A stretch of DNA of 64,000 nucleotides from assembly GCA_947448725.1 (NCBI GenBank), contig CANFOM010000012.1, forward strand, positions 6,622 through 70,621. The letters are read 5' to 3'. A program made the translations under genes and the position numbers. Each line of letters starts with the position of its first letter. The stretch's first letter is position 1. Source of the stretch: Bacteroidota bacterium (lineage in GTDB: Bacteria; Bacteroidota; Bacteroidia; Chitinophagales; Chitinophagaceae). Under the pieces are notes generated by a model that was given only the letters and a program-made list of their open reading frames with translations, ran no database searches and was not told the origin of the DNA. Below, piece after piece: positions 14,110 to 38,822 of the stretch.

Positions 14110-14142
14110 ATTTTTTTATTTTTTTAAACAATTATTTTTATT

Positions 14143-24786: not shown

Positions 24787-26226
24787 TTAGCTTCCTAATT
24801 TTATTACAAAAGTACTCAAGGACTGTTTCGAAATTGAATAGCTCAATTGATGATCCTTAACCATACTGGCCTCTATTTTTTTACAATCCTCCGAAGGTGA
24901 AGTGCGGTATAATACTGGGGTAAAAGTGGATTGAGTAAACTTACTCAAGTCAATTTTTATAGGCTTATCCGTGTCTGAGGTATTAAGTAACGCAATTACT
25001 AATTCATTCTTCAAAGGATCTAAAGCCGCCAACACTTGATCGTTCCCAGTTTCAATCATAGTATACCCACGCTTAAAAAATCGGGTAAGCTGCATTCTTA
25101 CATAATAATTTTTTAATATTTCATAAGTTTGGCCTTTAAAATCGCATATCAACAAGCCCCACTCTTTATTCCCTTCTTCCATTAATTGCCAGTCTATCCA
25201 AGCAGAGGGTTTCATATAACGCAGATCGTTGAAAATCTTTTGAGTAAATAAAAGACTGCTTTGTAATGCAATACCGCCATCAGGACCTGATTCTGAAACC
25301 CAAAGTGGTTTTCCAACTTCAGCCACCAATTTAGCTACATTTACCCTCTCTTCATTTGTGCCCGCATAGGTATGGGTATTTAAATTAATGACTTTATCGA
25401 AAATTTTATTGTCAGCTTTATAAATATTCATCACTGTCAAAAACTGATTTAAATTAGTTTCATCTGAAACAGCTAATTGCGTAGACAGGTTTGAATTTTT
25501 TAATACTGGATATAAAGTATTGATAACATTCATTTGAGACTGCGGCTCAAAGTGACAACCTTCCTGTGACCCTTCATAATACCAATATTGTGAAAAGGAT
25601 TCATTGAAAGGTTCTAGGGTTCTAAATTTTACACCATAATTATCATAATAGTGTTTACAAACGTCTACTAAATAATTTGAAAAAGCTAAGTAGTTTTTAG
25701 GATCTAAGTTTTCTTTAGTGTTTCTGTCCGCACCTGCACCAGCAGAACAACCACTAATGGTCATCCAATAAGGGGGAGAATTTGAGAAGGCCTCGAAGAT
25801 GGCATCGGAACGAGCGTCTTTTATTTTTAATAAAATATTTCTTTGTGCTTTGTCTGCATCCCAATTGTAAGGGGCTGTTGCAGAAGCTTTAAAACCTTCC
25901 ATTTCGGCACGCTTCCCTTTTCCGCTAGTCATATGTCCATTGGCATGTGCAGGATCATCTCCTCCACCAATATTATAACGGAAGATGTTCATATTCAATT
26001 TATCCGGATTGGTAAACAAATCAATAATGGTATTCACTTTTGTTTGATCCCAGGCACCCACTTGCCCAGCCCACCAGCATAAGGAACTTCCCCATCCTTC
26101 TATAGTTTGATAAGTTTTACTTGGATCTATAGTAACCACTTGCTCAGAAGGAGTTGCCTCTGCTTGTTTGGTTGTACAATAAATAGTGGATGCTAGAATA
26201 AGGGTTAAAATAAGTACTCTTTTCAT
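24787..26226 (-). CDS. Glycoside hydrolase family 30-like (glucosylceramidase/beta-1,6-glycanase fold), secreted
   Basis: 479-aa ORF with a signal peptide. N-terminal IEGWGSSLCWWA and overall GH30-like pattern (EPFNE.., SESGP). Confidence 0.7.
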   Translation of the reverse strand: MKRVLILTLILASTIYCTTKQAEATPSEQVVTIDPSKTYQTIEGWGSSLCWWAGQVGAWDQTKVNTIIDLFTNPDKLNMNIFRYNIGGGDDPAHANGHMTSGKGKRAEMEGFKASATAPYNWDADKAQRNILLKIKDARSDAIFEAFSNSPPYWMTISGCSAGAGADRNTKENLDPKNYLAFSNYLVDVCKHYYDNYGVKFRTLEPFNESFSQYWYYEGSQEGCHFEPQSQMNVINTLYPVLKNSNLSTQLAVSDETNLNQFLTVMNIYKADNKIFDKVINLNTHTYAGTNEERVNVAKLVAEVGKPLWVSESGPDGGIALQSSLLFTQKIFNDLRYMKPSAWIDWQLMEEGNKEWGLLICDFKGQTYEILKNYYVRMQLTRFFKRGYTMIETGNDQVLAALDPLKNELVIALLNTSDTDKPIKIDLSKFTQSTFTPVLYRTSPSEDCKKIEASMVKDHQLSYSISKQSLSTFVIKLGS

Positions 26227-26268
26227 AAGATAAATTTAAACTGACTAATTAAAATAAATATAAATTAT

Positions 26269-27372
26269 TTAAAAAGTAAAATCAGGTAGGTCTATTTTAA
26301 TACCGCCTTGCATGGCCGATTCATGAGCAAGTATTCCTACACAAGTAATATTAGCAGATTGTTTGGCATTAGGGAAAGGTGCTCTATTTTCATTTAAAGC
26401 ATTTAAAAACTCGTTCACTAAATGTGGATGAGAACCGCCATGACCCGAACCTTGAATAAAGGATAAATGTTGATTGCTATCCTCGTCATATACTCCCTTA
26501 GTGGTAAAGGATTGAATTTCTTTAGGTAATAAATGAGCATAGTCGGGAACAGCAACACGTTCGGGTATTTCGCCAACATGTATTACAGGTTGTTCGTGTT
26601 CCACCTGAGCCCACTCAAAACTTTTTTTAGAGCCATACACATCAAAGCTTTCTCTGTATTGTCGAGCGGTGTTAAAAAGAGAACGCGTTACTTCTCCAGC
26701 AATATCAGAATTTCTAAATTGTATATGACAACTTTCTACAGCAAATGGAGAATTGTATTTTGAAATTAAGTTTTCATCAATTCGGCCCGATCCCACACAG
26801 GAAACAGAGCTGGCTTCTTTGCCAATTAATCCAACAATAGGACCCACGCAATGGGTGGCATAATGCATTGGAGGCAAGCCTTCCCAATAGCCTGGCCATC
26901 CTGCCATTTCTTGTTGATGGGAAGCACGGATAAATTGTATTTTACCTAAGTCTCCTTTGGTAAATAATTCTTTTACAAATAAATATTCACGACTAAACAC
27001 CACCGTCTCCATCATCATATAGGTTTTGCCACTTTTTTGAGCAGCTTCCACAATTAACCTACACTCTTCCACCGTAGTTGCCATTGGAACTGTACAAGCC
27101 ACATGCTTTCCAGCATTCAAGGCTTTAATAGTTTGTTCGGCATGACTTTGAATGGGTGTATTGATGTGCACTGCGTCAATGGCAGGGTCTTTTAATAGTT
27201 CATCATAATCCGAAAATCTTTTTTCAATATTAAACGCATCTCCAATAGCCTTTAACTTGGCTTCATCTCTTTGACATATGGCATACATATTAGCCAATGG
27301 ATGTTTTTGGTAAATAGGAATAAATTCAGCACCAAAGCCTAATCCTACAATAGCGATATTCATTTTTTTCAT
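26269..27372 (-). CDS. Gfo/Idh/MocA family oxidoreductase
   Basis: 367-aa ORF with IAIVGLGFGAEFIPIY Rossmann start. Lies 5 nt downstream of the TIM-barrel gene. Confidence 0.85.
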   Translation of the reverse strand: MKKMNIAIVGLGFGAEFIPIYQKHPLANMYAICQRDEAKLKAIGDAFNIEKRFSDYDELLKDPAIDAVHINTPIQSHAEQTIKALNAGKHVACTVPMATTVEECRLIVEAAQKSGKTYMMMETVVFSREYLFVKELFTKGDLGKIQFIRASHQQEMAGWPGYWEGLPPMHYATHCVGPIVGLIGKEASSVSCVGSGRIDENLISKYNSPFAVESCHIQFRNSDIAGEVTRSLFNTARQYRESFDVYGSKKSFEWAQVEHEQPVIHVGEIPERVAVPDYAHLLPKEIQSFTTKGVYDEDSNQHLSFIQGSGHGGSHPHLVNEFLNALNENRAPFPNAKQSANITCVGILAHESAMQGGIKIDLPDFTF

Positions 27373-27377
27373 ACTTT

Positions 27378-28238
27378 TTATTTAAATGTTTTTTTCATAA
27401 AATCCAATCCTTGTTGAGCAAATATTTCTTGGCTAGCTGCTAGTGGTTTCCAAATACAAACCGCTTCCGCTAATTGTTGATTCATGGGCGTGAAACTTTC
27501 TAAACTAATCATCCCTTGATAATTTATTTTATTAAGCCCAGTTGCGTAATCGTTCCAAGGCGTTATACCCGTACCAGGTATTCCTCTGTGATTTTCGGAA
27601 ATTTGCATATGAATTAAGTTGTCACCTGCTTGCAAAATAGCCTCCAGCGGATTTTTTTCCTCAATATTCATATGAAAGCTATCTAAACTAATTTTTGCAG
27701 CTGGATGATTGATTTCTTTAACCAGTTGGCAAACATCTGCAGCACTGTTTACTAAATCAGATTCGAAACGGTTAATGGGCTCAATCGCCAATTGGCAATG
27801 ATGTTGCGCTGCCATCTCACAAGCGATGCGCACATTTTTTACTGCCAAGTCCCACTCTTTTTTTCTATCAACGGGCGATAACATTCTACGCTTACCCACT
27901 GCCGAATACATAGGACCAGCCAAAAAATTGGTATCCCATTGATTACACAATTTTAAACAGGCTTCAATATAATCAAAGCACTCTTGATGAATGGCTGGGT
28001 CATTACTGGTTAAATCTCTCGAGGTACCAAAAGCGCCACATACCACCGCTGTTAAATTATACTTGCGTAAAGCATTTGCTACTTTTTCAGCATCAATTTG
28101 CTGGGGGTCTTCCACAGCAATTTCTATTGCATCATATCCCAATTGTGCCACTTTTTCAAAAATAGGCTCAATACTTTGTGTAGTAAATGGCGAAACAAAT
28201 AACCAACTACTTACCCCTAATTTATATTTTCCTGACAT
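27378..28238 (-). CDS. Sugar phosphate isomerase/epimerase (xylose-isomerase-like TIM barrel)
   Basis: 286-aa ORF. Family pattern ..YDAIEI.., ..LAIEPINRFE.., ..HMQISENHRG... Confidence 0.8.
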   Translation of the reverse strand: MSGKYKLGVSSWLFVSPFTTQSIEPIFEKVAQLGYDAIEIAVEDPQQIDAEKVANALRKYNLTAVVCGAFGTSRDLTSNDPAIHQECFDYIEACLKLCNQWDTNFLAGPMYSAVGKRRMLSPVDRKKEWDLAVKNVRIACEMAAQHHCQLAIEPINRFESDLVNSAADVCQLVKEINHPAAKISLDSFHMNIEEKNPLEAILQAGDNLIHMQISENHRGIPGTGITPWNDYATGLNKINYQGMISLESFTPMNQQLAEAVCIWKPLAASQEIFAQQGLDFMKKTFK

Positions 28239-28244
28239 GAAATA

Positions 28245-31151
28245 TTATTTAGCAACCACTTTCATGACACCATTCATATTACGCCAATGACCTGGAAAAG
28301 AACATATATAAGGAAAGTCTCCAACATTATCTGGTACATTAATAACCATTGTATATGTTTTTTGAGGATTCACTAACGGAGTAGCATATAAAACCTCCCC
28401 CATCTTTGGTGTATAATTTAATTCAGCACCTCTTGGATCCATCGCAATTTTATCTGCAGCAGCACCAACTCTTTCCTTTGAACCTGGTCTTAAAATTAAT
28501 AAGTTGTGTTGCATGTAATCAATATTGATAAAATTTATCTTTACTGTGGTGCCTGCTTTAACAGTAAACTCTGTGACATCATATTTCATTTCGTTTTTAA
28601 TTACTGAAATATTTACTGTTTGATCAATGATAGTAGCCACTACATTTTTTTCTTTACTCATTTTTAAATGCGTGCCTCTTGCCGATCTCAAAGCCATATT
28701 AATCCATTTATCGTCGGCGTTTTCTTTCACTTTTAACATCTTATCCAAAATAGCATAAGCTTCAGCAGATGGCTTCATATCGGCAATCGCAATGACTGCT
28801 GCTAAACGCACTCTATAATCTGCATCTTCAAACACCTTTGCATTTTGATATGCTTTTAATGCAGTGGGTAATGCCTTAGTTACTTCCACTGCCGCTTTAC
28901 GAACGCCACCAGATGGATTGCTTAATGCTTTAGTTGCCGCTGCAATAGCACTTGCATTATTTTTTAATAAGCCTAAACCATGTAAAGTCCATAATGCATG
29001 AATCGCAGGTGCATTAACACCAGCAGCATCCACATTACTTGTATTGATTATTTTAATTAATGCTGGTGCAACAGATATGTCTTTATTTTCAACCAATAAT
29101 CTTTGTGCAGTGGTTCTCCAAAACATATTATTATTGGATAAGGCTTTTAATAAGCCCGCTTTATCATTTTTATCTAGACTGATGGGTGCATTCACCGGGC
29201 CATCCTTATACACTAAGCGATAAATACGACCGCGCTCATGATCTCTTAATGGGTTGATATGTGCATTACCCTTGCCATTTTCAAAACCTTTAGGTGTTGG
29301 GTTGTGTTGTATGATAAAATCATACCAATCCGTGATCCAAACATTCCCGTCAGGACCCACTTCTGATTGAATAGGAGCAAACCATTCATCCGCACTGGCC
29401 ACTAAATTCCAACCATCTCCTTTTTCTTTAAAACCAGAACCTACTTGCTCAATATAATTTTTATGTATCAATCTTCCGGTAGGCTCAGCTACCATAGCCA
29501 CTTTATTCCAAAAATCAGATGGATAATTTCTAGCAGTGTAAATACTTTGTCCAGCTGCTGCTGTAAAACCACCAAATACATCTACCTGTCTTAAATTTTT
29601 TGTAACCACATGCATTGCATAATGCGCATCAATTTTTTCAGTGCCCGATTTTTCTGGGTATACCTTTTTTAATACTCTCTTTGGAATACCAAAAAATACA
29701 CTATGCGTATTATTAGCAGTGGAAGCAAAAACATCAAATTCCTCCGAGAAACCTAGTCCCCAAGTATTATTGGTAGTACCTCCTAAAAATTCTATATCAT
29801 TTACTTTTTTTGTATTGGGTTTGAAGCTATAGATACCCATACTAAATGTGGTGGTATCTTTTCCTTTGACATTTAAATATCCAGAATAACCTACGGTGCC
29901 CCAAATTTTATTATCTAATCCATACCTTAAATTAGAAGGTCCTGCATGGGTATCAGTAATGCCCCAACCTGTTAAGATGGTATCTTTGATATCTGCTTTG
30001 TCATCGCCATTGATATCTTTTAAAAATAAAAAGTAAGGCATTTGTGCTACAACAATACCCCCATCTGAAAAAGTGAAACTAGTAGGGATATTTAATTTAT
30101 CTGCAAAAACAGTCGATTTATCGGCTTTGCCATCGTTGTCTGTATCTTCTAAAATAATAATTTTATCTTGCCCTCCTTCTTTATTTTCTCTCACTTCATT
30201 TGGATAATCAACTGTTTCAATTGCCCATAAACGACCTTTCTCATCCCAATTAATATAGATAGGATTGATGATCATAGGTTCAGAAGCAAAAAGTTTTAAA
30301 TCAAAACCTACAGGTACTTGAATAAGTGATTGAGATTCTACTGGATTTAAAGCCCCTTGATATTTAGGAGCTGGATCACGCTTCTCATAATTAGGAATGA
30401 TTGCATCCGTATAAGTAGGCTCAGCAATTTTAAAAGCTGCTAAGTTGGCTAATGCTTGATCATTGACTGCCCATAAAATTCCATTCTCCACCAATTGTAA
30501 AAATTGAGGATTGTTAAAAGTAATATCATCGTGGCCATAAGCAGTATAAAACACTCTTCCTTTTCCAATATTTTGTGTCCAAGTATAAGGTTCGTTTCTG
30601 TCCCCTTCCTTGCGCTCAGTAATCACGTTAATATTAGGACTTAAAAGGGTATGAATATAAGTTTCATCTTTAGTAAAAAAGGGAAGTACATTTTTCAATA
30701 ACGGGTTAGTGTTATCTTTAAAAATAGAAGGGAAAGAATCTATTCCATGTTTTTGAAATTGACCTCCAATCATTTCAACCACTTCAGGTGAATTTCTAAA
30801 ACAATACGAACCGCAATGCAATGGTATAAACCCTTTTCCATTTTTTACAAAATCCAACAAAGCTGTTGCATGCTCCTTGCTAATGGTATCGTAGTTGGCA
30901 TAAAGAATTAAGCCGTCATAAGGCTTCAAAGTTTTTTCGTTTAAGTCATTTATATCTGTAGTATAAGTGATATTAATTCCTTTTTTAAAATACTGTTTTG
31001 CTAATAAACTAGCCAACACATCAGAATTATGATGTTTGCTTGTATGCCCTAGAAATAAAAGCTCAAGACGTTTAGGCGATTGAGCAAATAACTGAGCAGA
31101 AATTACAAGGAACGTAAAAAGCGAAACAATTTTTTTTAACGACCAATTCAT
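28245..31151 (-). CDS. Four-module periplasmic protein: ThuA-like domain + PVC-type putative membrane-bound dehydrogenase domain (TIGR02604-like) + HEAT repeats + C-terminal azurin-like cupredoxin
   Basis: 968-aa ORF with a signal peptide. ThuA-like GKGFIPLHCGSY..GKGRVFYTAYGHD. Dehydrogenase-domain pattern LFASEP..GRLWAIETVDYPN..DTDNDGKADK. The type-1 Cu ligand set is HNLLI plus CSFPGHWRNM (28275-28304), with the azurin spacing C+5=H and C+9=M. Confidence 0.75.
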   Translation of the reverse strand: MNWSLKKIVSLFTFLVISAQLFAQSPKRLELLFLGHTSKHHNSDVLASLLAKQYFKKGINITYTTDINDLNEKTLKPYDGLILYANYDTISKEHATALLDFVKNGKGFIPLHCGSYCFRNSPEVVEMIGGQFQKHGIDSFPSIFKDNTNPLLKNVLPFFTKDETYIHTLLSPNINVITERKEGDRNEPYTWTQNIGKGRVFYTAYGHDDITFNNPQFLQLVENGILWAVNDQALANLAAFKIAEPTYTDAIIPNYEKRDPAPKYQGALNPVESQSLIQVPVGFDLKLFASEPMIINPIYINWDEKGRLWAIETVDYPNEVRENKEGGQDKIIILEDTDNDGKADKSTVFADKLNIPTSFTFSDGGIVVAQMPYFLFLKDINGDDKADIKDTILTGWGITDTHAGPSNLRYGLDNKIWGTVGYSGYLNVKGKDTTTFSMGIYSFKPNTKKVNDIEFLGGTTNNTWGLGFSEEFDVFASTANNTHSVFFGIPKRVLKKVYPEKSGTEKIDAHYAMHVVTKNLRQVDVFGGFTAAAGQSIYTARNYPSDFWNKVAMVAEPTGRLIHKNYIEQVGSGFKEKGDGWNLVASADEWFAPIQSEVGPDGNVWITDWYDFIIQHNPTPKGFENGKGNAHINPLRDHERGRIYRLVYKDGPVNAPISLDKNDKAGLLKALSNNNMFWRTTAQRLLVENKDISVAPALIKIINTSNVDAAGVNAPAIHALWTLHGLGLLKNNASAIAAATKALSNPSGGVRKAAVEVTKALPTALKAYQNAKVFEDADYRVRLAAVIAIADMKPSAEAYAILDKMLKVKENADDKWINMALRSARGTHLKMSKEKNVVATIIDQTVNISVIKNEMKYDVTEFTVKAGTTVKINFINIDYMQHNLLILRPGSKERVGAAADKIAMDPRGAELNYTPKMGEVLYATPLVNPQKTYTMVINVPDNVGDFPYICSFPGHWRNMNGVMKVVAK

Positions 31152-31287
31152 AGGATTTATTTTTAATAAGATTTACCAATTAAAGTATTCAAATATTTTG
31201 AGCATTAAATATATTGAAAATAGTCTAGCTAAAGTGTAAAATTTAAACTCCTTTAAAAGAAAGTAGTGGGACCGGCCTTAACCTATC

Positions 31288-32703
31288 TTACTGATTCACA
31301 ATAGGTTTATTGTCGGGGCAGAGTTTTTCGGACTCGTATTTCAATATGGTCTCGTATAACTTATTTCTCAAATTTGAAAGTATTTTAGCATACTTAGGCA
31401 GCCTTGCAAGGTTATGCTTTTCCAATGGATCTTTCTTTAAGTTATAAAGTTCTTCTGGCGCTTTAATATACTTATAATGAAAATACTTCCACTCGTTAGT
31501 TCGAATTCCTTCGCTGGAAGGAATAGCGGGCAATTTCCATAAATGTTCTATTAAGATAGAATCTCTGGAAGCAGTAATATTTCCATTTTTTAAATAGGGC
31601 ATTAGATTAATTCCTTGATAATTTTTGGGAGCTGGTATACCTGCTAATCCCAAAATGGTTTTACTAATATCAATATTAAGGGCCATAGCATCAATGGTGG
31701 CTGGCCGATGAATTCTTGGATCGTAAATAATTAAGGGTATTCGAATGGAAACATCATACATCAACCATTTATCTGCTAGTTGACGATCTCCTAAGAAATA
31801 ACCATTATCACTCATTACAATAATAATTGTATTGTCTTCGATTCCTTTTTCCTTTATTTGTTTTCTAATAAGCCCAATTTCGTCATCAATCTCAGTGATC
31901 ATTCGATAATAACCCTTTACCATATTTTGATATTTCTCAGGATTGTCAAATCTCCACTTCCATCTAGTTCTATTAAAACCCTCTCTTACCTCTTTAGGCA
32001 ATTGGTTAAAATAAATCGAGTCTCCCATAATAGGAGCAGGTATAGTTATGTTCTTATAAAGACTATCGGATTTTTGTTGCCAATAATATTGCTCTAATGA
32101 TTCATCATGGCCATGGGGGGCACTAAAAGATACAGAAAGACAAAAAGGTTGATCCGATGGCGCAGACTTTATAAATTCCAAAGCTTGATAACCCGAGTAC
32201 CTGGTAAGATGCACACTATCATTTCCTATTTTTTTATAAAAATAACCTGCTCTATTGGGTGACTCTCCCCGATCATAGAAATCACTCTTATTAAAATACT
32301 GACTGGGCGTATCCATCGTTACCCCTAATTTTCCAAAAAAGCCAACATAATACCCATTGTCCTTTAATATTTTAGGATACATGATTTCGGCATAAGGTTG
32401 TTGTAATCTTGGTTGTTGAAAAGTATAGCCATGTGTGCGTTCATACAAGCCAGTTAATATGGAAGCCCTGCTGGCAGCGCATATGGGTGTAGTTGAAAAT
32501 GCATTTTTAAAATAAGTTCCTGCTTTAGCCAATGCATCCATTTGCGGCGTGATGATCCTATTATTGCCAGCTACGCCTAATGCATTCCAACGTTGATCAT
32601 CTGTAAGTATAAAAATAATATTCGGCCTATTATTTTGAGCAAAAATAACAACAGGCATCAAACAAAAAACAAAACACCAGTATCGAAGCTTTGAATAGTT
32701 CAT
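31288..32703 (-). CDS. Formylglycine-dependent sulfatase (arylsulfatase family), secreted
   Basis: 471-aa ORF with a signal peptide. Metal site IIFILTDDQRWN. FGly motif TPICAASRASILTG (C-x-A-x-R). Confidence 0.9.
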   Translation of the reverse strand: MNYSKLRYWCFVFCLMPVVIFAQNNRPNIIFILTDDQRWNALGVAGNNRIITPQMDALAKAGTYFKNAFSTTPICAASRASILTGLYERTHGYTFQQPRLQQPYAEIMYPKILKDNGYYVGFFGKLGVTMDTPSQYFNKSDFYDRGESPNRAGYFYKKIGNDSVHLTRYSGYQALEFIKSAPSDQPFCLSVSFSAPHGHDESLEQYYWQQKSDSLYKNITIPAPIMGDSIYFNQLPKEVREGFNRTRWKWRFDNPEKYQNMVKGYYRMITEIDDEIGLIRKQIKEKGIEDNTIIIVMSDNGYFLGDRQLADKWLMYDVSIRIPLIIYDPRIHRPATIDAMALNIDISKTILGLAGIPAPKNYQGINLMPYLKNGNITASRDSILIEHLWKLPAIPSSEGIRTNEWKYFHYKYIKAPEELYNLKKDPLEKHNLARLPKYAKILSNLRNKLYETILKYESEKLCPDNKPIVNQ

Positions 32704-32709
32704 AGAAGT

Positions 32710-33543
32710 TTAATTACTTCCTTGATATAGAATAGGATTCAATGGGGAATTAACTGTTTCTCCAATGATAGCACCTGGGCACCAGGTATCCCAATCGTTT
32801 TGTTGATTTTTATTTTCAGGCGCTTTTAATTTCATATCCTTGTCCATGTAAATAATGGTCATCACTTTTCGCATTTCATTGCTTTTATTGGGACCTGCTC
32901 TGTGATACAGCCAGCCTTTATGAAAGCTTACCTCTCCTAAATCAAAGGGTTCTATGATATGTGAAAACCCTTTTGTTTTTAAAGCGTTTTCTAAAAATTG
33001 TTGGCTCTCATCACTTATTTCTTTATCTCTACCATCTAGCAATTGATCACTTCCGGCGCTGTATTCCAATGGCCCCCATGCCAATGGCGTAATTTGCAAT
33101 GGTATCCATGCAGTAACCGTTTTATCGGAGGCTAATGGCCAATAATACTGATCGGCATGCCAAGGAGTATGCCCACCACTTGGTTCTTTATATAAAGCTT
33201 GATCATGGTAAAGACGAACGCCATCTACCTCCATTAATTCAGTAGCAATTTTTGCTAATTTTTTTCCAAATACAATTTCTTTTACTATTTCAGAATTCTT
33301 CCAAATATTCATTATCTGTAAAAAAGCTTTGCCATAGGTATCTCTTTGCTCCATGGAAAGCACTTGTTTATTAAGTGCATTTACTTCGCTAGTGATAACC
33401 ACATTTAAAAAGTCAATCTCTTCTTGATTAAAAACATTTTTTAATTTAATGAAGCCATTATTCCTGTAAAAATTAATGTCTTTTTCAGAAAGCGAGTAGC
33501 TCTCGTTCATCCACTTGGCTATAGCCTCAGGCACTTTGTTCAT
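32710..33543 (-). CDS. Phytanoyl-CoA dioxygenase (PhyH) family Fe(II)/2OG oxygenase
   Basis: 277-aa ORF. HxD facial-triad context (TPWHADQYYW) and a distal His (FHKGWLYHRAGPN). Lies 6 nt upstream of the sulfatase gene. Confidence 0.7.
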   Translation of the reverse strand: MNKVPEAIAKWMNESYSLSEKDINFYRNNGFIKLKNVFNQEEIDFLNVVITSEVNALNKQVLSMEQRDTYGKAFLQIMNIWKNSEIVKEIVFGKKLAKIATELMEVDGVRLYHDQALYKEPSGGHTPWHADQYYWPLASDKTVTAWIPLQITPLAWGPLEYSAGSDQLLDGRDKEISDESQQFLENALKTKGFSHIIEPFDLGEVSFHKGWLYHRAGPNKSNEMRKVMTIIYMDKDMKLKAPENKNQQNDWDTWCPGAIIGETVNSPLNPILYQGSN

Positions 33544-33702
33544 ATGCTTTTGTTTATTGGTAGCTAAATTTAATAAAAAAATATATTAATGGCACCATAT
33601 TATATCAACTATTTCAACAAAAAGATTATTAAAATAAACTAATTTCAAGTTTGAGTTGCAATGCTTCCTGCAAACCCAATGAACGATTTGTTTAATTGAA
33701 AT

Positions 33703-34215
33703 TTGTATATGATCTTATTTGAAACAGAAAGGTATATAGTAAGGCGTTTTACAACGGCCGACAATGAGGATTTTTATCTCATCAATAGCCATCCAGATGT
33801 GATGAAGTTTATTCGCCCAGTAAAAAACAAACAAGAGTGTGCAATATTCTTAACTGAGAATATTCAACTTTATCAAGACGATTCTATTATTGGCAGGTAT
33901 ATGGTTATTGAAAAAAAATCAAGTTTATTGGTAGGCATTTTTTCCTTTTTATACCTTTCGGATAATTTAAATTATCATATTGGCTTTGCATTGCTTCCTG
34001 CCTTTTGGGGACAAGGAATTGCGCAGGAATTAGTTCAACAAGGTGTTGGGTATTTTTTTGAAAACACTTCTAAAAATGAATTATTTGCCATCACAGACGC
34101 TGCCAATAAAGCATCTCAAAATGTTTTGCTAAAAACAGGCTTCCTAACCGCCGAAAACACCCTTGAAAAAGAGCGCTTACTCGACTTGTTTGTTATAAGA
34201 AAAGAGGCGCTTTAA
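33703..34215 (+). CDS. GNAT family N-acetyltransferase (RimJ/RimL-like)
   Basis: 170-aa ORF with acetyl-CoA motif FWGQGIAQELV. The start could be Met1 or Met3. Confidence 0.75.
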   Translation: MYMILFETERYIVRRFTTADNEDFYLINSHPDVMKFIRPVKNKQECAIFLTENIQLYQDDSIIGRYMVIEKKSSLLVGIFSFLYLSDNLNYHIGFALLPAFWGQGIAQELVQQGVGYFFENTSKNELFAITDAANKASQNVLLKTGFLTAENTLEKERLLDLFVIRKEAL

Positions 34216-34384
34216 GCTTACTACTAAGCCGCTAAGGCATTGGATTAGGCAGTAGCTAGCCAATACCCTATAAATAATGCCCAAATTCAAATAAAATTTG
34301 AAATCCTAATAAAAAATAGTTTTATCTTCCAATACCAAATTTTGGACTTCTTTCTAATAATATTAAAAAAATAAAAGATTTAAG

Positions 34385-35800
34385 ATGATTGTATTTAAAA
34401 GAGGCATTCTTTGTGCATGCCTGATAGCAGCCAATGCGTTGGCTATTTCGGCACAAAATCAGCAGGGAACTGCTATTTCCCTCAACAACTTAGATGCGTT
34501 TCGCGCATCGGGTACCAACTGGTCAATCGGTTCTGATGCAATTGCGAATCCTAATACAAAAGGATCCATGAAAGCCATCGCAGGAACAGGGGTTCTGGTA
34601 GACGTACTCAATCCAAAAGACAATAAAGACATCCTCACCAAAGAAGAATTTGGAGATTTTGAATTGGAGCTAGATTTTATGATGGCAAAAGAATCTAACT
34701 CTGGTGTGTATATTCAAGCTCGTTATGAGGTGCAACTATTTGATAGTTGGACTAAATTGCATCCTGAATTTTCTGACTGTGGTGGAATCTATCAACGTTG
34801 GGATGATGCGCGTGGTAAAGGGAATGAAGGATATGAGGGAATTGCCCCACTTAACAATGCTGCTCGTGCACCAGGCTTATGGCAACACCTTAAAATAAGA
34901 TTTCAGGCCCCTCAGTTTAATGCTGCGGGAGTAAAAATTAGAAATGCACGTTTCCAAGAAGTGTATTTAAACGGTGTACTTGTTCAATTACAACAAGAAG
35001 TTACTGGACCTACCCGCTCCTCTGCTATAGTAGAAGAGAAACCATTGGGTCCACTTATGCTACAAGGAGATCACGGCAATGTGGCATTTCGTAATATTCA
35101 ATATAGACCCTTGGTTGAGCCTAAACAAAAAAAATCTGGGGACAACCCGATTCTAGTAAAGGCAGATGGTAAACCTTATTTACTTAGAAGCTTTATCAAT
35201 TATGGAGATAAAAAATTGACCCATGTTATTTCAGGCGGCTATCCTAATCTTTTAAATTTTTCTTACGACCTTAAACAAGGCGCACTCTTACAAATATGGA
35301 GAGGAGATTTTATGGATGTTACTGAGATGTGGTATGAGCGTGGCGAGCCTCAATTAGCAAAACCTTTGGGAAGTGTAATTACATTATCAGGAGCTCCTTC
35401 ACTTGCAGTCATTAGCGACCCTGCCAATGCCTGGCCTGATTCAATCGCCTTTGATGATTTAGTAAACAAGGGGTATACATTGGATAAAGATCGCTTTCCT
35501 AGTTTTGAATACGAATTTAAAGGCATCAAAGCCACCGATAAAATATCGGCACCCACTGCTAATTCCATCGTTCGTGAAATAAATGTTTCCAATGCTCCTG
35601 AAAATTTATATGCGAGAGTTGCATTTGGAAAAAATATAGAAAAAGTTGGTATGGGCCTTTATAGCATAGATGATAAATCTTATTATTTAAAACTTGATGA
35701 TGCTATTAAGCCTTTAATTCGTGAAACTGCTCACGGAAAAGAAATGTTAGTACCTATCGCCAATAATTCAAATTCACTAACTTATTCTATTCAATTTTAA
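34385..35800 (+). CDS. DUF1080 (3-keto-disaccharide hydrolase-like, concanavalin-type) domain protein with an unassigned C-terminal half
   Basis: 471-aa ORF with a signal peptide. DUF1080 pattern FELELDFMMAKESNSGVYIQARYEVQLFDSW ..HGNVAFRNIQY. Confidence 0.7.
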   Translation: MIVFKRGILCACLIAANALAISAQNQQGTAISLNNLDAFRASGTNWSIGSDAIANPNTKGSMKAIAGTGVLVDVLNPKDNKDILTKEEFGDFELELDFMMAKESNSGVYIQARYEVQLFDSWTKLHPEFSDCGGIYQRWDDARGKGNEGYEGIAPLNNAARAPGLWQHLKIRFQAPQFNAAGVKIRNARFQEVYLNGVLVQLQQEVTGPTRSSAIVEEKPLGPLMLQGDHGNVAFRNIQYRPLVEPKQKKSGDNPILVKADGKPYLLRSFINYGDKKLTHVISGGYPNLLNFSYDLKQGALLQIWRGDFMDVTEMWYERGEPQLAKPLGSVITLSGAPSLAVISDPANAWPDSIAFDDLVNKGYTLDKDRFPSFEYEFKGIKATDKISAPTANSIVREINVSNAPENLYARVAFGKNIEKVGMGLYSIDDKSYYLKLDDAIKPLIRETAHGKEMLVPIANNSNSLTYSIQF

Positions 35801-35853
35801 AACCCGTGCTACTCATCGGAGTGCAAATATTTTAACACCGTAATCTTTGAATA

Positions 35854-37938
35854 ATGACAATCAATAAAAAAATTATAGTTCTAAGTCTTTCTTTGTTGAG
35901 TATGCTTACAAGCATGCTTCAAACTCAAACCCTTCATGCTCAGGTTAAAAAAGACACGACTACTCGTATCCAAAAAGAAGAAGATTTCTACCCCATCAAA
36001 ACAGTTCAGATCCCTGCGGATGTGATTCTTGAAGTAGGTGGTATGGCATTTATGTCCAATGATCAGCTAGCTGTATCCACACGTCGTGGAGAAGTATGGA
36101 TCATATCTAACCCTTACATGAAGAATGGTCAACCACCCGTATATCGTTTATTCGCTCAAGGAATGCATGAAGTACTTGGATTAAATTATATTAATGGTGA
36201 CCTATACCTAACTCAACGTGCCGAACTAACTCGCTTACGTGATTTAGATGGTGATGGTATAGCGGATGAATACAAAACAGTTTATTCTTGGCCACTTTCT
36301 GGCAACTATCATGAATATGCCTATGGCCCAGTATTGGATAAAAACGGTGACATGGCAGTTAATTTAAACGTAGGTTGGATTGGTTTTGGTGCTAGTTTGT
36401 CCAAGTGGCATGGCTGGACCATCAAGATCAAACCTGATGGAACCATGAAACCATTTTTAACCGGACTTCGTTCTCCTGCTGGATTTGCGTTGAATGATAA
36501 AGGGGATATGTTTTATGCAGAGAACCAAGGAGATTGGGTAGGTTCGGGAAGTATTACCGAAATGGAAGAAGGAGATTTCATGGGTAATACCGCTGGACTA
36601 AGATGGGCTGCTGAACCAGGAAGTCCAGTTAAACTAAGAGTAAGCGATATTCCAGATAATAGTGAACCCAAATATGATGTAGCTAAAAGAGTTCCAGGAC
36701 TTAAAACTCCATCAGTATGGTTTCCTCATACCATTTTAGGTATTTCAACATCCGGTATCATAAGTTATGAAGACAAAGGAATTTCCACCCCTTATCAAGG
36801 TAAGATGGGACCTTTCTATGGCCAACTATTTGTAGGTGATCAAGGTCAAAGTAAATTGATGCGTGTTTACTTGGAAAAAATAAAAGGAGTGTATCAAGGA
36901 ATGGTATGGCCTTTCCGTGAAGGATTTTCTTCTGGTATTCTGAGAATGAATTGGGGATCTGACGGAAGCATGTTTGTTGGAATGACTTCTCGAGGATGGA
37001 GTTCGACAGGTGGTGGTCTTTATGGATTACAAAGATTAGAATGGAATGGAAAAGTTCCTTTTGAAATGAGAACCGTACAAGCAAAACCTGATGGATTTGA
37101 AATTGAATTTACAGAAGCTGTGGATGAAACAACTGTCAAAAACCCAGCCTCATGGGCATTGTCTAGTTTCACTTACCAATATCATCATCAATATGGAAGT
37201 CCTGTTATTAATCTTGGCGCTTGCCCTATTAAAGCCATTGAAGTTTCTGCAGATCATTTAAAAGTAAGACTAGTAGTAGATAGTATGCGATTGGGTTATA
37301 TACATGAAATTAGAGCAGCAGGTGTTCGCTCCTCAAATCAATATGCATTGCTTCATAACTATGGATATTATACACTTAATAATTTCCCAGATGGAGAAAA
37401 CTTAGTAATTAATGCAGATAATAAAGTAGCCCTTCCTTCTACTATGGATCATCACCACATGATGATGGAAATGCCAAAAAGTAAAGCTTCTGACGACAAA
37501 TCAGAATCGAATAAATTAAAACCAAGTAGTAAACATCAAACTAGACAACCTGCAAGTTGGACCAAAGGCCCAGATCAAGTTTTTGAAATTGGTACAAAAC
37601 CAGGTCTTAAATATGATCAAGAAGCGATAAGCGTAAAAGCAGGGTCAAAAGTAAAACTCATTTTCAATAATAATGATGACATGCTGCACAATTTAGTTAT
37701 CACGCTTCCTGGCACCGCCGATAAAGTGGGAAGACAATCATTAGCCTTGGGACTCAATGCAGAAAAATTTAATTATATCCCAACGACTACGGATATTTTA
37801 TTTCATACCATACTATTGCATCCTAAGGAATCTGATACTATATATTTTGTAGCTCCTACAAAACCAGGTGATTATACTTATATATGTACTTATCCGGGAC
37901 ACTATATAGTCATGAGAGGAATCTTAAAAGTTTTTTAG
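35854..37938 (+). CDS. Periplasmic beta-propeller dehydrogenase-like protein (sorbosone/glucose dehydrogenase-like fold) + His/Met-rich linker + C-terminal azurin-like cupredoxin
   Basis: 694-aa ORF with a signal peptide. Propeller-type DLDGDGIADEY. Linker MDHHHMMMEMP (37444-37476). Cu ligands HNLVI plus CTYPGHYIVM (37885-37914). Confidence 0.7.
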   Translation: MTINKKIIVLSLSLLSMLTSMLQTQTLHAQVKKDTTTRIQKEEDFYPIKTVQIPADVILEVGGMAFMSNDQLAVSTRRGEVWIISNPYMKNGQPPVYRLFAQGMHEVLGLNYINGDLYLTQRAELTRLRDLDGDGIADEYKTVYSWPLSGNYHEYAYGPVLDKNGDMAVNLNVGWIGFGASLSKWHGWTIKIKPDGTMKPFLTGLRSPAGFALNDKGDMFYAENQGDWVGSGSITEMEEGDFMGNTAGLRWAAEPGSPVKLRVSDIPDNSEPKYDVAKRVPGLKTPSVWFPHTILGISTSGIISYEDKGISTPYQGKMGPFYGQLFVGDQGQSKLMRVYLEKIKGVYQGMVWPFREGFSSGILRMNWGSDGSMFVGMTSRGWSSTGGGLYGLQRLEWNGKVPFEMRTVQAKPDGFEIEFTEAVDETTVKNPASWALSSFTYQYHHQYGSPVINLGACPIKAIEVSADHLKVRLVVDSMRLGYIHEIRAAGVRSSNQYALLHNYGYYTLNNFPDGENLVINADNKVALPSTMDHHHMMMEMPKSKASDDKSESNKLKPSSKHQTRQPASWTKGPDQVFEIGTKPGLKYDQEAISVKAGSKVKLIFNNNDDMLHNLVITLPGTADKVGRQSLALGLNAEKFNYIPTTTDILFHTILLHPKESDTIYFVAPTKPGDYTYICTYPGHYIVMRGILKVF

Positions 37939-37970
37939 TAGTCTAACATTAATATAAATAATACCTAATT

Positions 37971-38822
37971 ATGAAATTTATTTTGCCTTTTTTATTATTA
38001 AGCACCCTTACTGTAATTGGACAAAAGCCGAGCAAAGAAGCTTGGGAAAGCATGTTTAATGGTAAAGATTTAACTGGATGGACACCCAAAATTAGGTATG
38101 CCGCATCCGGCGATAATGTTAAAAATACTTTCAGAGTCGTTGATGGTAAACTAGCTGTTAGCTATGATCAATATGATAAGTTTAATGAACAATTTGGTCA
38201 TTTATTTTATAATAAAAAATTCAGCTATTACCATATCAAATTAAAATACAGATTCATAGGCGATCAAGCAAAAGATGGACCAGGTTGGGCCTATCGAAAT
38301 AGTGGCATTATGATACATGGGCAATCGCCTGAATCTATGGGCAAGGATCAGGATTTTCCTATTTCCATTGAAGTACAATTACTTGGCGGTAATGGAAAAG
38401 ACAAACGCCCCACTTGTAATTTATGTACACCTGGAACCAATGTCGAAATGAATGGAAAATTATTCAAGCCTCATTGTATTAATTCAACATCAGAAACTTA
38501 TCATGGAGATCAGTGGGTTACTGCCGAAGTAATTGTATTAGGTGATTCTATTGTACAACATTTTGCTAATAATAAAATGGTACTATCTTATCAAAAGCCA
38601 CAAATTGGTGGCGGTAATGTAAGCGGACAAGATATTATTTATGGTTCCGAAGGTCAACTATTAACCGAGGGATCCATTTCCTTACAAAGCGAAAGCCACC
38701 CTGTTGAATTTAAAAGTATTGAAATTTTAAACTTGGAGGGTTGCATGGATCCCACTGCTAGTAATTACAAAACTTACTATATCAAATCCAAACCAAGCGA
38801 TTGTCAATATTCTAAAAAATAA
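37971..38822 (+). CDS. DUF1080 (3-keto-disaccharide hydrolase-like) domain protein
   Basis: 283-aa ORF with a signal peptide. Pattern W..MFNGKDLTGW, YRNSGIMIHG, IEVQLLGG and SESHPVEFKSIEI. Confidence 0.75.
   Translation: MKFILPFLLLSTLTVIGQKPSKEAWESMFNGKDLTGWTPKIRYAASGDNVKNTFRVVDGKLAVSYDQYDKFNEQFGHLFYNKKFSYYHIKLKYRFIGDQAKDGPGWAYRNSGIMIHGQSPESMGKDQDFPISIEVQLLGGNGKDKRPTCNLCTPGTNVEMNGKLFKPHCINSTSETYHGDQWVTAEVIVLGDSIVQHFANNKMVLSYQKPQIGGGNVSGQDIIYGSEGQLLTEGSISLQSESHPVEFKSIEILNLEGCMDPTASNYKTYYIKSKPSDCQYSKK

Follow-up and report, generated by a model that had tools for sequence, protein, structure and literature searches.

A 14-kb mosaic of two independently conserved Bacteroidota modules, each encoding a propeller protein fused to an azurin-like copper domain

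Periplasmic DUF1080 enzymes take 3-keto-glycosides as their substrates (10.1101/2024.03.25.586180; PMC8121099). In the clusters BT2156-BT2160 of Bacteroides thetaiotaomicron and AL1-AL5 of Alistipes, each a single conserved cluster, the oxidase is a Tat-exported Gfo/Idh/MocA protein with tightly bound NAD, the xylose-isomerase-like TIM protein is a secreted lyase, and a secreted DUF1080 protein is encoded alongside them, while the pathway has neither a copper nor a propeller protein (PMC8121099; 10.1101/2024.03.25.586180). In the LacABC-type clusters of Caulobacter, DUF1080 genes adjoin periplasmic, cytochrome-linked glycoside 3-dehydrogenases, which consist of an FAD (GMC) subunit and a cytochrome c subunit and feed the respiratory chain, together with a transporter, 'sugar epimerases' and a reductase that have been proposed to salvage keto-sugars in the cytoplasm (PMC9007349). 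A third relevant group is the TIGR02604 family, also named 'PVC-type heme-binding CxxCH protein' or 'putative membrane-bound dehydrogenase', whose sole biochemical report, on Lac161_ORF7, calls the protein a beta-galactosidase and not a dehydrogenase (PMC5342196). Here we compare these systems with a 14-kb cluster that draws on the same families and encodes two copper proteins.

Gene content of the cluster

The window, which is the whole stretch of 64,000 nucleotides that we analysed, comes from a freshwater lineage of Chitinophagaceae, and its nearest genome, 95% identical, is a MAG labelled Sediminibacterium. Six genes of the cluster lie on the minus strand and encode, in coordinate order, an exported GH30 protein (24787-26226; 479 aa; PF14587), a cytoplasmic Gfo/Idh/MocA protein (26269-27372; 367 aa; Pfam), a cytoplasmic xylose-isomerase-like TIM barrel (27378-28238; 286 aa; PF01261), an exported ThuA-DUF7133-HEAT-cupredoxin protein (28245-31151; 968 aa; Pfam and NCBIfam), an exported sulfatase with the motif C-A-A-S-R (31288-32703; 471 aa; PF00884 and SGSH_C) and a cytoplasmic PhyH-family Fe(II)/2-oxoglutarate dioxygenase (32710-33543; 277 aa; PF05721), with gaps of 42, 5, 6, 136 and 6 nt between them. 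The plus strand follows with a cytoplasmic GNAT acetyltransferase (33703-34215; 170 aa; PF13302), an exported two-domain DUF1080 protein (34385-35800; 471 aa; PF06439), an exported propeller-cupredoxin protein (35854-37938; 694 aa; Pfam) and a small, exported, single-domain DUF1080 protein (37971-38822; 283 aa; PF06439, 123.9 bits). Hydrophobic N-terminal signals mark both cupredoxin proteins, both DUF1080 proteins, the sulfatase and GH30, while no signal peptide was found on TIM, Gfo, PhyH or GNAT, either in the window copies or in the homologues inspected.

Every domain family scored above its curated cut-off in Pfam or NCBIfam, with the sole exception of DUF7133 in the 694-aa protein. The ten open reading frames, their spacings and their domain families all agree with a preliminary description of this DNA, which had named the right families and read the ten genes as a single oxidative route for a sulfated beta-glycan. 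Genes for GH31, GH78-like and esterase proteins occur in the vicinity. No SusC/SusD pair adjoins the cluster, the closest one lying past a riboflavin operon, and we found no regulatory element common to the two arrays.

Two independently conserved modules

We compared 163 related loci, 83 of them from genomes and carrying the ThuA-azurin gene, and 80 from metagenomes and carrying the propeller-azurin gene. The 14 kb proved to be a mosaic of two independently conserved Bacteroidota modules and variable accessory genes, not one operon. Module A consists of the 968-aa ThuA-DUF7133-HEAT-azurin protein as its anchor, a ketose-3-epimerase-like TIM and a Gfo/Idh/MocA protein, which co-occur in 60-65 of the 83 genome loci: TIM adjoins the anchor in 62, a Gfo-family gene of any kind is present in 65, and the Gfo orthologue adjoins the anchor or TIM in 60. 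These Gfo orthologues are 66-80% identical where the anchors themselves are 50-60% identical, and the loci span Chitinophagales, Sphingobacteriales, Cytophagales, Flavobacteriales and Balneolales. The module comes with an AraC regulator at 45 of the loci and with an MFS transporter at 18; no AraC gene is found across the whole window.

Module B pairs a DUF1080 protein, whose C-terminal domain is unnamed, with the sGDH-like propeller-azurin protein as anchor, and the two occur together in 66-67 of the 80 metagenome loci. The two modules rarely share their parts, since DUF1080 is found in just 2-3 of the 83 ThuA-azurin loci, and Gfo and TIM in 11 and 2, respectively, of the 80 propeller-azurin loci. 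The expected link between DUF1080 and a dehydrogenase-like copper protein is deeply conserved in Module B and nearly absent near the ThuA-azurin gene, where co-occurrence of the cupredoxin-terminated TIGR02604-type protein holds for TIM and Gfo but not for DUF1080.

The sulfatase, GH30 and GNAT genes are variable accessories. GH30 is present at none of the ThuA-azurin loci and one propeller-azurin locus, GNAT at none and three, and any sulfatase at seven and ten (of 83 and 80 in each case), and each of these genes, like the small DUF1080 gene, is absent from at least one relative of at least 90% identity. For example, L004 has no GH30 gene 3' of Gfo, and its PhyH and DUF1080 genes are spaced 184 nt apart with no room for GNAT; the 90% relative L102 has no sulfatase; and the 283-aa DUF1080 gene is missing from L004 and L085. 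The last gene is a sporadic accessory of Module B, as a DUF1080 gene directly 3' of the propeller-azurin gene was found in only 6 of the 71 loci that could accommodate it, and also in L164. PhyH, on the other hand, is a lineage-specific neighbour of the modules, present in all four relatives of at least 90% identity (L004, L084, L085 and L102) and in just one or two more loci of each set of about 80.

Modules A and B lie side by side only in these same four relatives. At 86% identity, L086 has Module B and no Module A, and at 85-89% L001 and L005-L008 have Module A and no Module B. Their adjacency is therefore a feature of this lineage and does not extend beyond it, so that the adjacency of the whole cluster predicted by the preliminary description is not borne out among the 163 loci, although the four closest relatives all keep the two modules together, which would allow for co-regulation specific to the lineage.

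Copper sites, propellers and partner proteins

In both cupredoxin domains the azurin ligand set of His, Cys, His and Met is complete (H...C-x2-PGH-x3-M), and alignments A3 and A4 show no variation at these residues. Among full-length homologues, C-x2-PGH-x3-M is present in 79 of 81 ThuA-azurin and 78 of 78 propeller-azurin proteins, and CxxCH in none of either set, confirming that a TIGR02604-type protein here carries a type-1 copper domain in place of cytochrome c. Both C-terminal domains match auracyanins and azurins best, in sequence as in structure (Foldseek TM 0.8-0.88). No description of a propeller-cupredoxin fusion was found in the literature searched; a survey of azurin genes (PMC8779525) dropped all hits longer than 200 aa, and azurin fusions therefore fall outside its coverage.

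The 968-aa anchor, which has more than 6000 homologues, runs from a signal peptide through ThuA (about residues 29-240), a DUF7133/TIGR02604 beta-propeller (about 280-650) and HEAT repeats (about 660-832) to the azurin/auracyanin-like type-1 copper domain (about 844-966; H882, C950, H955 and M959). It scores 239.6 bits against the TIGR02604 N-terminal domain model (cut-off 122.2), and its AF2 model (pLDDT 84) matched ThuA-like proteins as well as auracyanin and azurin in Foldseek. We found no sequence relative of the DUF7133 propeller in the PDB, and its kinship to the sGDH-like propeller is remote (hhalign probability 66%). At the position of the R-x-P-x-G-F motif shared by GSDH-type proteins and the 694-aa protein, this propeller reads N-N-T-W-G-L-G-F, which makes its binding of PQQ appear doubtful.

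In the 694-aa anchor of Module B, which has more than 7000 homologues, the six-bladed sGDH-like beta-propeller (about 48-400) is followed by a beta-sandwich (about 405-510), then by a disordered linker rich in His and Met (529-557) and by the azurin-like type-1 copper domain (575-693; H612, C678, H683 and M687). The best Foldseek matches of its AF2 model (pLDDT 82) are the PQQ sugar dehydrogenases 2ism, 3das, 3a9g, 1c9u and 6jt5 (target-normalised TM 0.55-0.71). Its own match to DUF7133 is weak (E 0.002); of 48 homologues tested, all match DUF7133 and 32 match Pfam GSDH. Many Bacteroidota lack PQQ synthesis, and no pqq genes lie within the window. Both propellers contain DxDxDGxxD loops, a type described for six-bladed PQQ propellers (preprint 10.64898/2026.07.10.737718).

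The 471-aa partner of this anchor joins an N-terminal DUF1080 (about 50-240; PF06439, 105.9 bits) to a C-terminal domain (about 245-471) for which Pfam gives no match. At 66 of 80 loci this unnamed C-domain is encoded directly 5' of the propeller-azurin gene, in about 20 of them without DUF1080, and across 1256 representative clusters of its family it is invariably C-terminal, in some members as DUF1080+PA14+C. The C-domain, rather than DUF1080, is therefore the constant partner of the propeller-azurin protein, which weakens an 'oxidise then eliminate' reading.

For Module A, the cluster TIM had been taken for a lyase and the cluster Gfo for the C3 oxidase. We found that TIM is closest to ketose 3-epimerases (PDB 7x7w, E 2e-39), reaching 181.7 bits against the NCBIfam D-psicose 3-epimerase model, under its cut-off of 300. 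Against the BT_2158 and BT_2159 models Gfo reaches 57 and 40 bits, far below their respective cut-offs of 750 and 650; its Rossmann fold begins at residue 4, and the 367-aa protein carries no Tat or Sec signal. Judged by sequence, the two proteins are not of the BT2158/BT2156 type, and neither assignment is supported. Because both lack signal peptides and belong to other subfamilies, direct electron transfer from the cluster Gfo to periplasmic copper is topologically implausible. A second Gfo, with a Tat signal and a resemblance to BT_2158, lies 23 kb from the cluster.

Candidate explanations and comparison with known systems

With moderate confidence, we favour the explanation that two phylum-wide modules are juxtaposed here, each centred on an exported propeller enzyme with an azurin electron acceptor in the same chain. 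What follows on electron flow, cofactor, substrates and products is inference. Each azurin domain would most likely be a built-in one-electron acceptor for its own propeller and would hand electrons onward to the aerobic respiratory chain, as a cytochrome domain does in quinohemoproteins and in those TIGR02604 proteins that carry CxxCH. In Module B, a glycoside would be oxidised in the periplasm and the keto-product then cleaved or hydrated, the partner being the secreted C-domain, usually fused to DUF1080 (a 3-keto-glycoside lyase/hydratase family) and sometimes to PA14. In Module A, a sugar would first be transformed in the periplasm by the exported ThuA-DUF7133-HEAT-azurin protein. The product would then enter the cell, putatively through the MFS transporter where one is encoded, and be converted in the cytoplasm by the ketose-3-epimerase-like TIM and an NAD(P)-dependent Gfo/Idh/MocA protein, with the module probably under AraC control in most other genomes.

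An unlikely alternative is a lineage-specific, co-regulated island for a plant or algal glycan, such as an arabinogalactan-type beta-1,6-galactan, whose parts act independently elsewhere. Module A, PhyH and Module B adjoin in the window and in all four closest relatives, Module A has lost its usual company of an AraC gene across the window, the best match of GH30 is an endo-beta-1,6-galactanase (PDB 24td, E 3.5e-55), and GH31, GH78-like and esterase genes are nearby; however, no SusC/SusD pair adjoins, the accessory genes vary across close relatives, and the two arrays have no regulatory element in common.

We consider it quite improbable that the propellers are glycoside-cleaving or sugar-binding proteins, with azurin feeding an O2-dependent step or handling copper. 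Purified Lac161_ORF7, with TIGR02604, HEAT and cytochrome c parts, freed glucose from lactose with a Km of 1.8 mM, but this report is one coupled glucose-oxidase/peroxidase assay on a haem protein (PMC5342196). The altered Arg motif of DUF7133, its lack of a PDB relative and the His- and Met-rich linker before the 694-aa azurin domain agree with such a role, whereas the constancy of a redox domain in the family, be it haem c or type-1 copper, is hard to square with a hydrolase, and the 694-aa propeller is structurally nearest to PQQ dehydrogenases.

Very improbable, and already contradicted as a unit by the comparative data, is the original reading of one sulfated beta-glycan route in which Gfo oxidises C3, TIM and DUF1080 break the bond and copper takes the electrons: all family types of the 3-keto-glycoside pathway do lie within 14 kb, with short minus-strand gaps, an arrangement retained in the four closest relatives and a literature in which the re-oxidation of periplasmic Gfo dehydrogenases is an open question (10.1101/2024.03.25.586180), but the modules separate elsewhere, Gfo and TIM have neither export signals nor the required kinship, the BT_2158-like Gfo is the distant one, GH30 resembles a galactanase, and the sulfatase, like GH30, GNAT and the small DUF1080, varies even among nearest relatives. 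Nothing observed here speaks for a sulfated beta-glycan as the substrate.

Under the favoured two-module explanation, the cluster differs from each of its closest relatives in a definable way. Rhizobial ThuAB, which Ampomah et al. 2013 reportedly identified as a trehalose and disaccharide 3-dehydrogenase, links ThuA genetically to Gfo/Idh/MocA as Module A does, but the ThuA of the window belongs to an exported copper protein of several domains, its Gfo is predicted to be cytoplasmic, and an epimerase-like TIM gene lies between. That Module A retains this linkage despite the different predicted compartments counts against our favoured explanation. ThuAB is named in PMC8121099, and compared with BT2156-BT2160 and AL1-AL5, the window has a cytoplasmic Gfo and a cytoplasmic TIM, each of another subfamily, and assigns DUF1080 and Gfo/TIM to different modules. 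The Caulobacter clusters follow the same logic of a respiratory-chain-linked periplasmic dehydrogenase beside DUF1080, whereas here the predicted dehydrogenase is a propeller with fused azurin, and the DUF1080-dehydrogenase and transporter-TIM-Gfo halves are split between two modules that have one copper protein each. The 968-aa protein shares the layout of propeller, HEAT and C-terminal redox domain with the TIGR02604 family and differs in its azurin-type copper in place of CxxCH and its extra N-terminal ThuA. Auracyanin and azurin, with the same ligand set, are single-domain electron carriers, while the window domains are fused to large, predicted catalytic proteins. The 694-aa propeller has the fold of the six-bladed PQQ soluble sugar dehydrogenases (sGDH, Asd/YliI and the Thermus and Pyrobaculum enzymes); Bacteroidota propellers of this kind described so far are paired with a separate cytochrome c551, unlike this fusion. 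The quinohemoprotein pyranose dehydrogenase CcPDH (AA12+AA8) has the same design of a propeller with a built-in electron-transfer domain, which is a cytochrome there and a cupredoxin in the 694-aa protein.

Gene content and conservation of the cluster

Our ORF map placed ten genes at 24787-38822, with exactly the coordinates and gaps that the preliminary description had reported. Six lie on the minus strand and encode GH30 (24787-26226), a Gfo/Idh/MocA protein (Gfo; 26269-27372), a xylose-isomerase-like TIM protein (TIM; 27378-28238), a 968-aa ThuA-DUF7133-HEAT-cupredoxin protein (28245-31151), a sulfatase (31288-32703), and PhyH (32710-33543), separated in this order by 42, 5, 6, 136, and 6 nt. 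The plus strand carries genes for GNAT (33703-34215), a 471-aa DUF1080 protein (34385-35800), a 694-aa propeller-cupredoxin protein (35854-37938), and a 283-aa DUF1080 protein (37971-38822). Pfam/NCBIfam confirmed all of these families, with matches above the curated cut-off except for the propeller of the 694-aa protein, whose window copy matches DUF7133 weakly (E 0.002). Among genomes, the nearest is a MAG from freshwater labelled Sediminibacterium (Chitinophagaceae), with 95% identity over the 968-aa protein, and the nearest metagenome contigs reach up to 97% identity.

The window has a G+C content of about 35%. It also contains genes for SusC/SusD, for several glycoside hydrolases, and for a rhodopsin, together with a riboflavin operon. 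On its left, the cluster borders on this operon and a DUF4440 gene; its right-hand neighbors encode a GDSL esterase and a peptidase. We rejected a reading of the cluster as a PUL because no SusC/SusD pair adjoins it; the nearest, at 12529-17388, is set apart by a phosphoesterase gene and the riboflavin operon. Between this pair and the operon, 17623-20328 (plus strand) encodes a 901-aa protein with YVTN-type β-propeller repeats and a C-terminal phosphoesterase/acid-phosphatase-like region. The gene beside SusD, at 11158-12423 (minus strand), encodes a DUF5690 protein (496.9 bits). After it come genes for an FAD oxidoreductase and for HD and HAD hydrolases, and these form a separate SusC/SusD-linked set.

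Elsewhere in the window, a β-carotene 15,15'-dioxygenase gene (54493-55404) adjoins a bacteriorhodopsin-like gene (55468-56193), both on the minus strand, and the two are a retinal-based light-harvesting pair. ARAGORN called a tRNA-Ile(GAT) at 48294-48376 (minus strand) within a 730-aa GH78-like ORF (47430-49622), and one of the two must be wrong, the tRNA as a false positive or the ORF as an overcall. Two minus-strand ORFs had no significant Pfam/NCBIfam match, one of 804 aa at 6044-8458 (MG2 at sub-threshold level only) and one of 571 aa at 60024-61739. A promoter and terminator scan returned sigma-70-type sites and terminators in numbers no different from those in shuffled sequence, and exact copies of the Bacteroidetes -7 motif TAnnTTTG were absent from the intergenic regions of the cluster.

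We compared the window with two sets of loci. The first, of 83 loci, was built on relatives of the 968-aa protein (80 with one genome per species and 3 looked up individually), and the second, of 80 metagenome loci, on relatives of the 694-aa protein. Both sets were probed with the window proteins by tblastn, all-against-all clustering, and jackhmmer. The first set revealed a three-gene unit, Module A, composed of the 968-aa anchor, TIM, and Gfo, which ranges over Chitinophagales, Sphingobacteriales, Cytophagales, Flavobacteriales, and Balneolales. TIM follows the anchor in 62 of the 83 loci, with many of the others cut by contig ends; a Gfo-family gene is present in 65 and an orthologue of the window Gfo in 60. 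Where the anchor retains 50-60% identity, Gfo is conserved at 66-80%. A divergent AraC-type regulator is added in 45 of these loci, and 18 carry an MFS transporter gene between the anchor and TIM. DUF1080 genes occur in only 2-3 of the 83, a sulfatase gene in 7, and PhyH in 2; none of the loci has GH30 or GNAT. In this set, cupredoxin-terminated TIGR02604-type proteins co-occur with Gfo and TIM and almost never with DUF1080.

Around the 694-aa protein, the family of the 471-aa protein is encoded directly upstream in 66 of 80 loci, and these two genes make up Module B. Most of the loci with no partner lack upstream sequence, and the partner is truly missing in five. Gfo (11 loci), TIM (2), sulfatase (10), and GH30 (1) genes are infrequent in this set.

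Modules A and B were adjacent only in four loci (L004, L084, L085, and L102), each of which shares at least 90% identity with the window. One locus with 86% identity (L086) has Module B without Module A, and at 85-89% identity five loci (L001 and L005-L008) have Module A without Module B. In the four loci L005-L008, which are about 85% identical, Gfo directly follows the ThuA-azurin gene and TIM is missing, and Module A can therefore exist without TIM. Gene content also varies within the clade of at least 90% identity: GH30 and GNAT are missing from L004, the sulfatase from L102, and the small DUF1080 and GDSL genes from L004 and L085. Since A-B adjacency is limited to these closest relatives while the accessories vary, the adjacency is not conserved for a 14-kb unit, an outcome that the preliminary description had named as one that would count against its model. 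Together, these findings reveal that the 14-kb cluster is a mosaic, within which two sub-units are strongly conserved. It is conceivable, though we consider it doubtful, that both modules form a lineage-specific, co-regulated island; in keeping with this, A, PhyH, and B are the only constants of the clade of at least 90% identity, and the AraC regulator usual in Module A is absent from the window.

The accessory genes bear on the substrate. GH30 is closest to an endo-β-1,6-galactanase (PDB, E 3.5e-55), a match so much stronger than that to β-1,6-glucanases that we rejected the latter identity. With GH30 galactanase-like, and with GH30 and the sulfatase both variable accessories, we see no support for the sulfated β-glycan proposed as substrate.

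Architecture of the two azurin-terminated proteins and the C-domain

In its predicted structure (AF2-type model; pLDDT 84, pTM 0.74), the 968-aa protein has four domains: ThuA (about residues 29-240), a β-propeller (about 280-650), HEAT (about 660-832), and a cupredoxin domain (about 844-966). The ThuA domain scores 118.6 bits (cut-off 33.4), with Foldseek matches to 4jqs, 4e5v, and 1t0b. The protein matches the N-terminal Piru_Ver_Nterm/DUF7133 part of TIGR02604 at 239.6 bits (cut-off 122.2) and PF23500 at 368.8 bits. It thus has its N-terminal domain in common with the TIGR02604 PVC-type heme-binding CxxCH proteins but lacks their heme c motif, as CxxCH is absent from the window protein and from all 81 full-length homologues. 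ThuA, azurin, and nitrous-oxide-reductase matches filled the Foldseek list of the model. The last of these had low TM and appear only because those enzymes, too, join a propeller with a cupredoxin.

The model of the 694-aa protein (pLDDT 82, pTM 0.77) comprises a propeller (residues 48-400), a β-sandwich (405-510), a disordered linker (529-557), and a cupredoxin domain (575-693). Its top Foldseek matches for the propeller were 2ism, 3das, 3a9g, 1c9u, and 6jt5 (Coprinopsis pyranose dehydrogenase), with target-normalised TM of 0.55-0.71, and the modelled propeller has the six-bladed fold of PQQ-dependent soluble sugar dehydrogenases. The window protein does not reach PF07995 (GSDH); of 48 close homologues, 32 do so with E no higher than 0.01 (best 6e-7), and DUF7133 is matched by all 48. 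By hhalign, the two propellers are only distantly related (probability 66%, E 5.7e-5). In this alignment a conserved His is kept in both (H153 and H402), and R-S-P-A-G-F of the 694-aa protein aligns with N-N-T-W-G-L-G-F in DUF7133, which makes PQQ a doubtful cofactor for the DUF7133 propeller. Both also contain DxDxDGxxD loops, which a 2026 preprint describes as a structural metal site in six-bladed PQQ propellers (10.64898/2026.07.10.737718). A propeller-only profile search found no PDB sequence relative of the DUF7133 propeller, and whole-protein profiles of both anchors returned almost only azurins from the PDB. No pqq genes were found among the window ORFs scanned.

The cupredoxin domains described earlier for both proteins were confirmed by Pfam and Foldseek, with His, Cys, His, and Met ligands at canonical spacing in a cupredoxin fold. 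The ligands are H882/C950/H955/M959 in the 968-aa protein and H612/C678/H683/M687 in the 694-aa protein, and they are invariant in the alignments of both azurin domains (44 and 48 homologues). Among full-length relatives, C-x2-PGH-x3-M is kept in 79 of 81 for the 968-aa protein and in 78 of 78 for the 694-aa protein, none of the latter having CxxCH. Both domains score above the PF00127 cut-off, and Foldseek matched them to auracyanins and azurins (TM 0.77-0.88; target-normalised TM up to 0.85 for the 968-aa cupredoxin). By predicted fold and ligands, both would be azurin/auracyanin-type cupredoxins, for which copper binding is predicted. The linker of the 694-aa protein (37438-37524, plus strand) is rich in His and Met (…STMDHHHMMMEMPKSK…) and partly conserved, and its H533 hardly varies. 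Copper loading is a possible role for this linker, which is similar to copper-binding Met/His motifs.

The 471-aa protein pairs DUF1080 with a C-terminal half of about 230 aa (about residues 245-471; 35117-35797, plus strand), which we call the C-domain. We found that what constantly accompanies the propeller-azurin gene is the C-domain and not DUF1080: in about 20 loci (L106-L128), the protein encoded upstream consists of the C-domain alone and has 243-265 aa. No Pfam family matched the C-domain at E up to 10; a weak DUF6797 match in one homologue (E 0.008) was not relied on. The family comprises 1256 representative clusters (E up to 0.001), in which the domain is always C-terminal and occurs alone, as DUF1080+C, or as DUF1080+PA14+C. 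A single-domain DUF1080 gene downstream of propeller-azurin is sporadic, being present in 6 of the 71 loci with room for it and in Mucilaginibacter auburnensis (L164).

Predicted compartments of the sugar-converting enzymes

We read N-termini by eye to assign compartments. Hydrophobic, signal-like N-termini are present in the 968-aa and 694-aa proteins, the sulfatase, GH30, and both DUF1080 proteins (PF06439 at 105.9 and 123.9 bits, cut-off 26.8). No signal peptide was seen in TIM, Gfo, PhyH, or GNAT, nor in the homologues inspected. Gfo has no N-terminal extension, its Rossmann fold starting at residue 4, and it scores far below the curated glycoside-oxidation models, with 57.3 bits for the BT_2158 model NF058561 (cut-off 750) and 40 bits for BT_2159 (cut-off 650). 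Its best PDB match is DgpA, over the Rossmann half only. TIM is nearest to D-psicose/D-tagatose 3-epimerases (PDB E 2e-39; equivalog 181.7 bits, cut-off 300), and its sequence thus marks it as a clear relative of ketose 3-epimerases, yet below the score for assigning that activity. A levoglucosan or inositol pathway for Gfo and TIM was also considered and rejected, since scores fell far under the curated cut-offs.

Since Gfo and TIM lack an export signal and belong to other subfamilies, they are probably cytoplasmic sugar-converting enzymes and not the periplasmic C3 oxidase and lyase that had been envisaged. With these predicted locations, the two cannot pass electrons directly to periplasmic copper. 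A second Gfo/Idh/MocA gene (62026-63387, plus strand) lies 23 kb from the cluster and encodes a 453-aa protein that bears a twin-arginine signal (MQKHSSQNRRQFIRNSSALLALSS) and ends in a PF19051 domain. In NCBIfam it matches the BT_2158_fam glycoside 3-dehydrogenase best (148.8 bits, cut-off 750). Judged by sequence, a periplasmic glycoside 3-dehydrogenase is more plausibly this protein than the cluster Gfo.

Proposed copper-linked oxidation and its relation to known systems

Gene content, conservation, folds, copper ligands, and predicted compartments come directly from the analysis. Beyond them, we hypothesize that the azurin domain of each anchor would take up electrons from the propeller of the same chain and would hand them on to the aerobic chain. 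In Module B, the 694-aa protein would oxidize a glycoside in the periplasm, and the DUF1080 domain of its partner, sometimes with PA14, would then process the oxidized product. In Module A, a product made in the periplasm would be imported by the MFS transporter and converted by cytoplasmic TIM and Gfo. We lean slightly toward this picture as a whole, in which two modules carry out sugar chemistry and each azurin domain serves its own propeller, and its mosaic part is much more certain than its chemistry.

It is unlikely, in our estimation, that the propellers are something other than dehydrogenases, such as glycoside-cleaving enzymes. The only biochemical report on the family speaks for this reading, calling a TIGR02604-HEAT-cytochrome c protein a β-galactosidase, but that result came from a coupled glucose-oxidase/peroxidase assay on a heme protein (PMC5342196), and this reading leaves the constant redox domain unexplained. 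That all ten genes form one pathway, as first proposed, is very improbable, since it conflicts with the comparison of loci and with the predicted compartments. The idea of one copper-coupled route, 14 kb long and directed at a sulfated glycan, finds no support.

Extending the two-module picture, the gene pair at 34385-37938 might be a third, undescribed entry to a periplasmic 3-keto-glycoside or related oxidative route, a proposal we advance as speculative and rather unlikely. A quinoprotein-like dehydrogenase of the sGDH fold would deliver electrons through a blue-copper domain of its own to aerobic respiration. It would form a complex with a secreted partner that docks via the C-domain and whose DUF1080 (sometimes with PA14) would process the oxidized glycoside. 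The 968-aa protein would be a second "cupro-dehydrogenase" that feeds a cytoplasmic epimerase and reductase. If this is true, both cupro-dehydrogenases would mean that Bacteroidota systematically swapped cytochrome c for cupredoxin in periplasmic sugar oxidation.

Both architectures are already known as database entries, and we found no published function for either. ThuA+DUF7133+Copper-bind has more than 6000 homologues at 90% clustering, labelled "PVC-type heme-binding CxxCH protein" or "putative membrane-bound dehydrogenase," and the propeller-azurin family has more than 7000 (90% clustering), labelled "azurin/glucose/arabinose dehydrogenase." Our literature search found no paper on DUF7133 or on ThuA-DUF7133-azurin or propeller-azurin fusions, and these families go unmentioned in a fitness study of plant-associated Bacteroidota. 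A survey of azurin genes dropped all matches longer than 200 aa (PMC8779525), and a survey of six-bladed PQQ propellers describes heme fusions and neighboring cytochromes but no cupredoxin fusion (10.64898/2026.07.10.737718). What appears to be new, judging from sequences and models, is a set of periplasmic propeller dehydrogenase-like enzymes with a built-in cupredoxin in place of a cytochrome, each in a small conserved module. Both modules are very common in soil, freshwater, and marine Bacteroidota. Should the copper domains serve as electron outlets for periplasmic sugar or glycoside oxidation, environmental Bacteroidota would couple a sizeable share of their carbohydrate turnover directly to respiration via copper and not heme, with consequences for copper demand and for annotation, which now reads "heme-binding CxxCH protein." The two-gene pair and the three-gene module are tractable targets in the cultivable, genetically accessible Pedobacter, Mucilaginibacter, and Chitinophaga.

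Several known systems offer parallels. The role proposed for the azurin domain is parallel to that of the cytochrome domains of quinohemoproteins and of the CxxCH domain of other TIGR02604 proteins; a separate cytochrome c551 has been reported beside Bacteroidota six-bladed PQQ propellers (10.64898/2026.07.10.737718). The proposed Module B follows the same logic as the LacABC dehydrogenases with adjoining DUF1080 genes, and the proposed Module A resembles the Caulobacter transporter, epimerases, and reductase proposed for 3-keto-galactose salvage (PMC9007349 for both). Module A also echoes ThuAB, in which ThuA-family and Gfo/Idh/MocA proteins are encoded together; this gene linkage is conserved here, but the predicted compartments differ, with an exported ThuA protein and a cytoplasmic Gfo. 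In the Bacteroides/Alistipes pathway (BT2156-2160/AL1-5), a Tat-exported Gfo 3-dehydrogenase with tightly bound NAD acts with a secreted TIM lyase and a DUF1080 lipoprotein lyase/hydratase (bioRxiv 10.1101/2024.03.25.586180; PMC8121099). A secreted DUF1080 protein is common to both systems. On the other hand, the cluster Gfo is unlike the exported BT_2158-family enzyme and has no signal, and whereas the TIM protein there is a secreted 3-keto-β-glucoside 1,2-lyase, the cluster TIM lacks a signal peptide and appears epimerase-like. Finally, Gfo, TIM, and DUF1080 sit in one conserved cluster in that pathway, whereas here they are split between Modules A and B.
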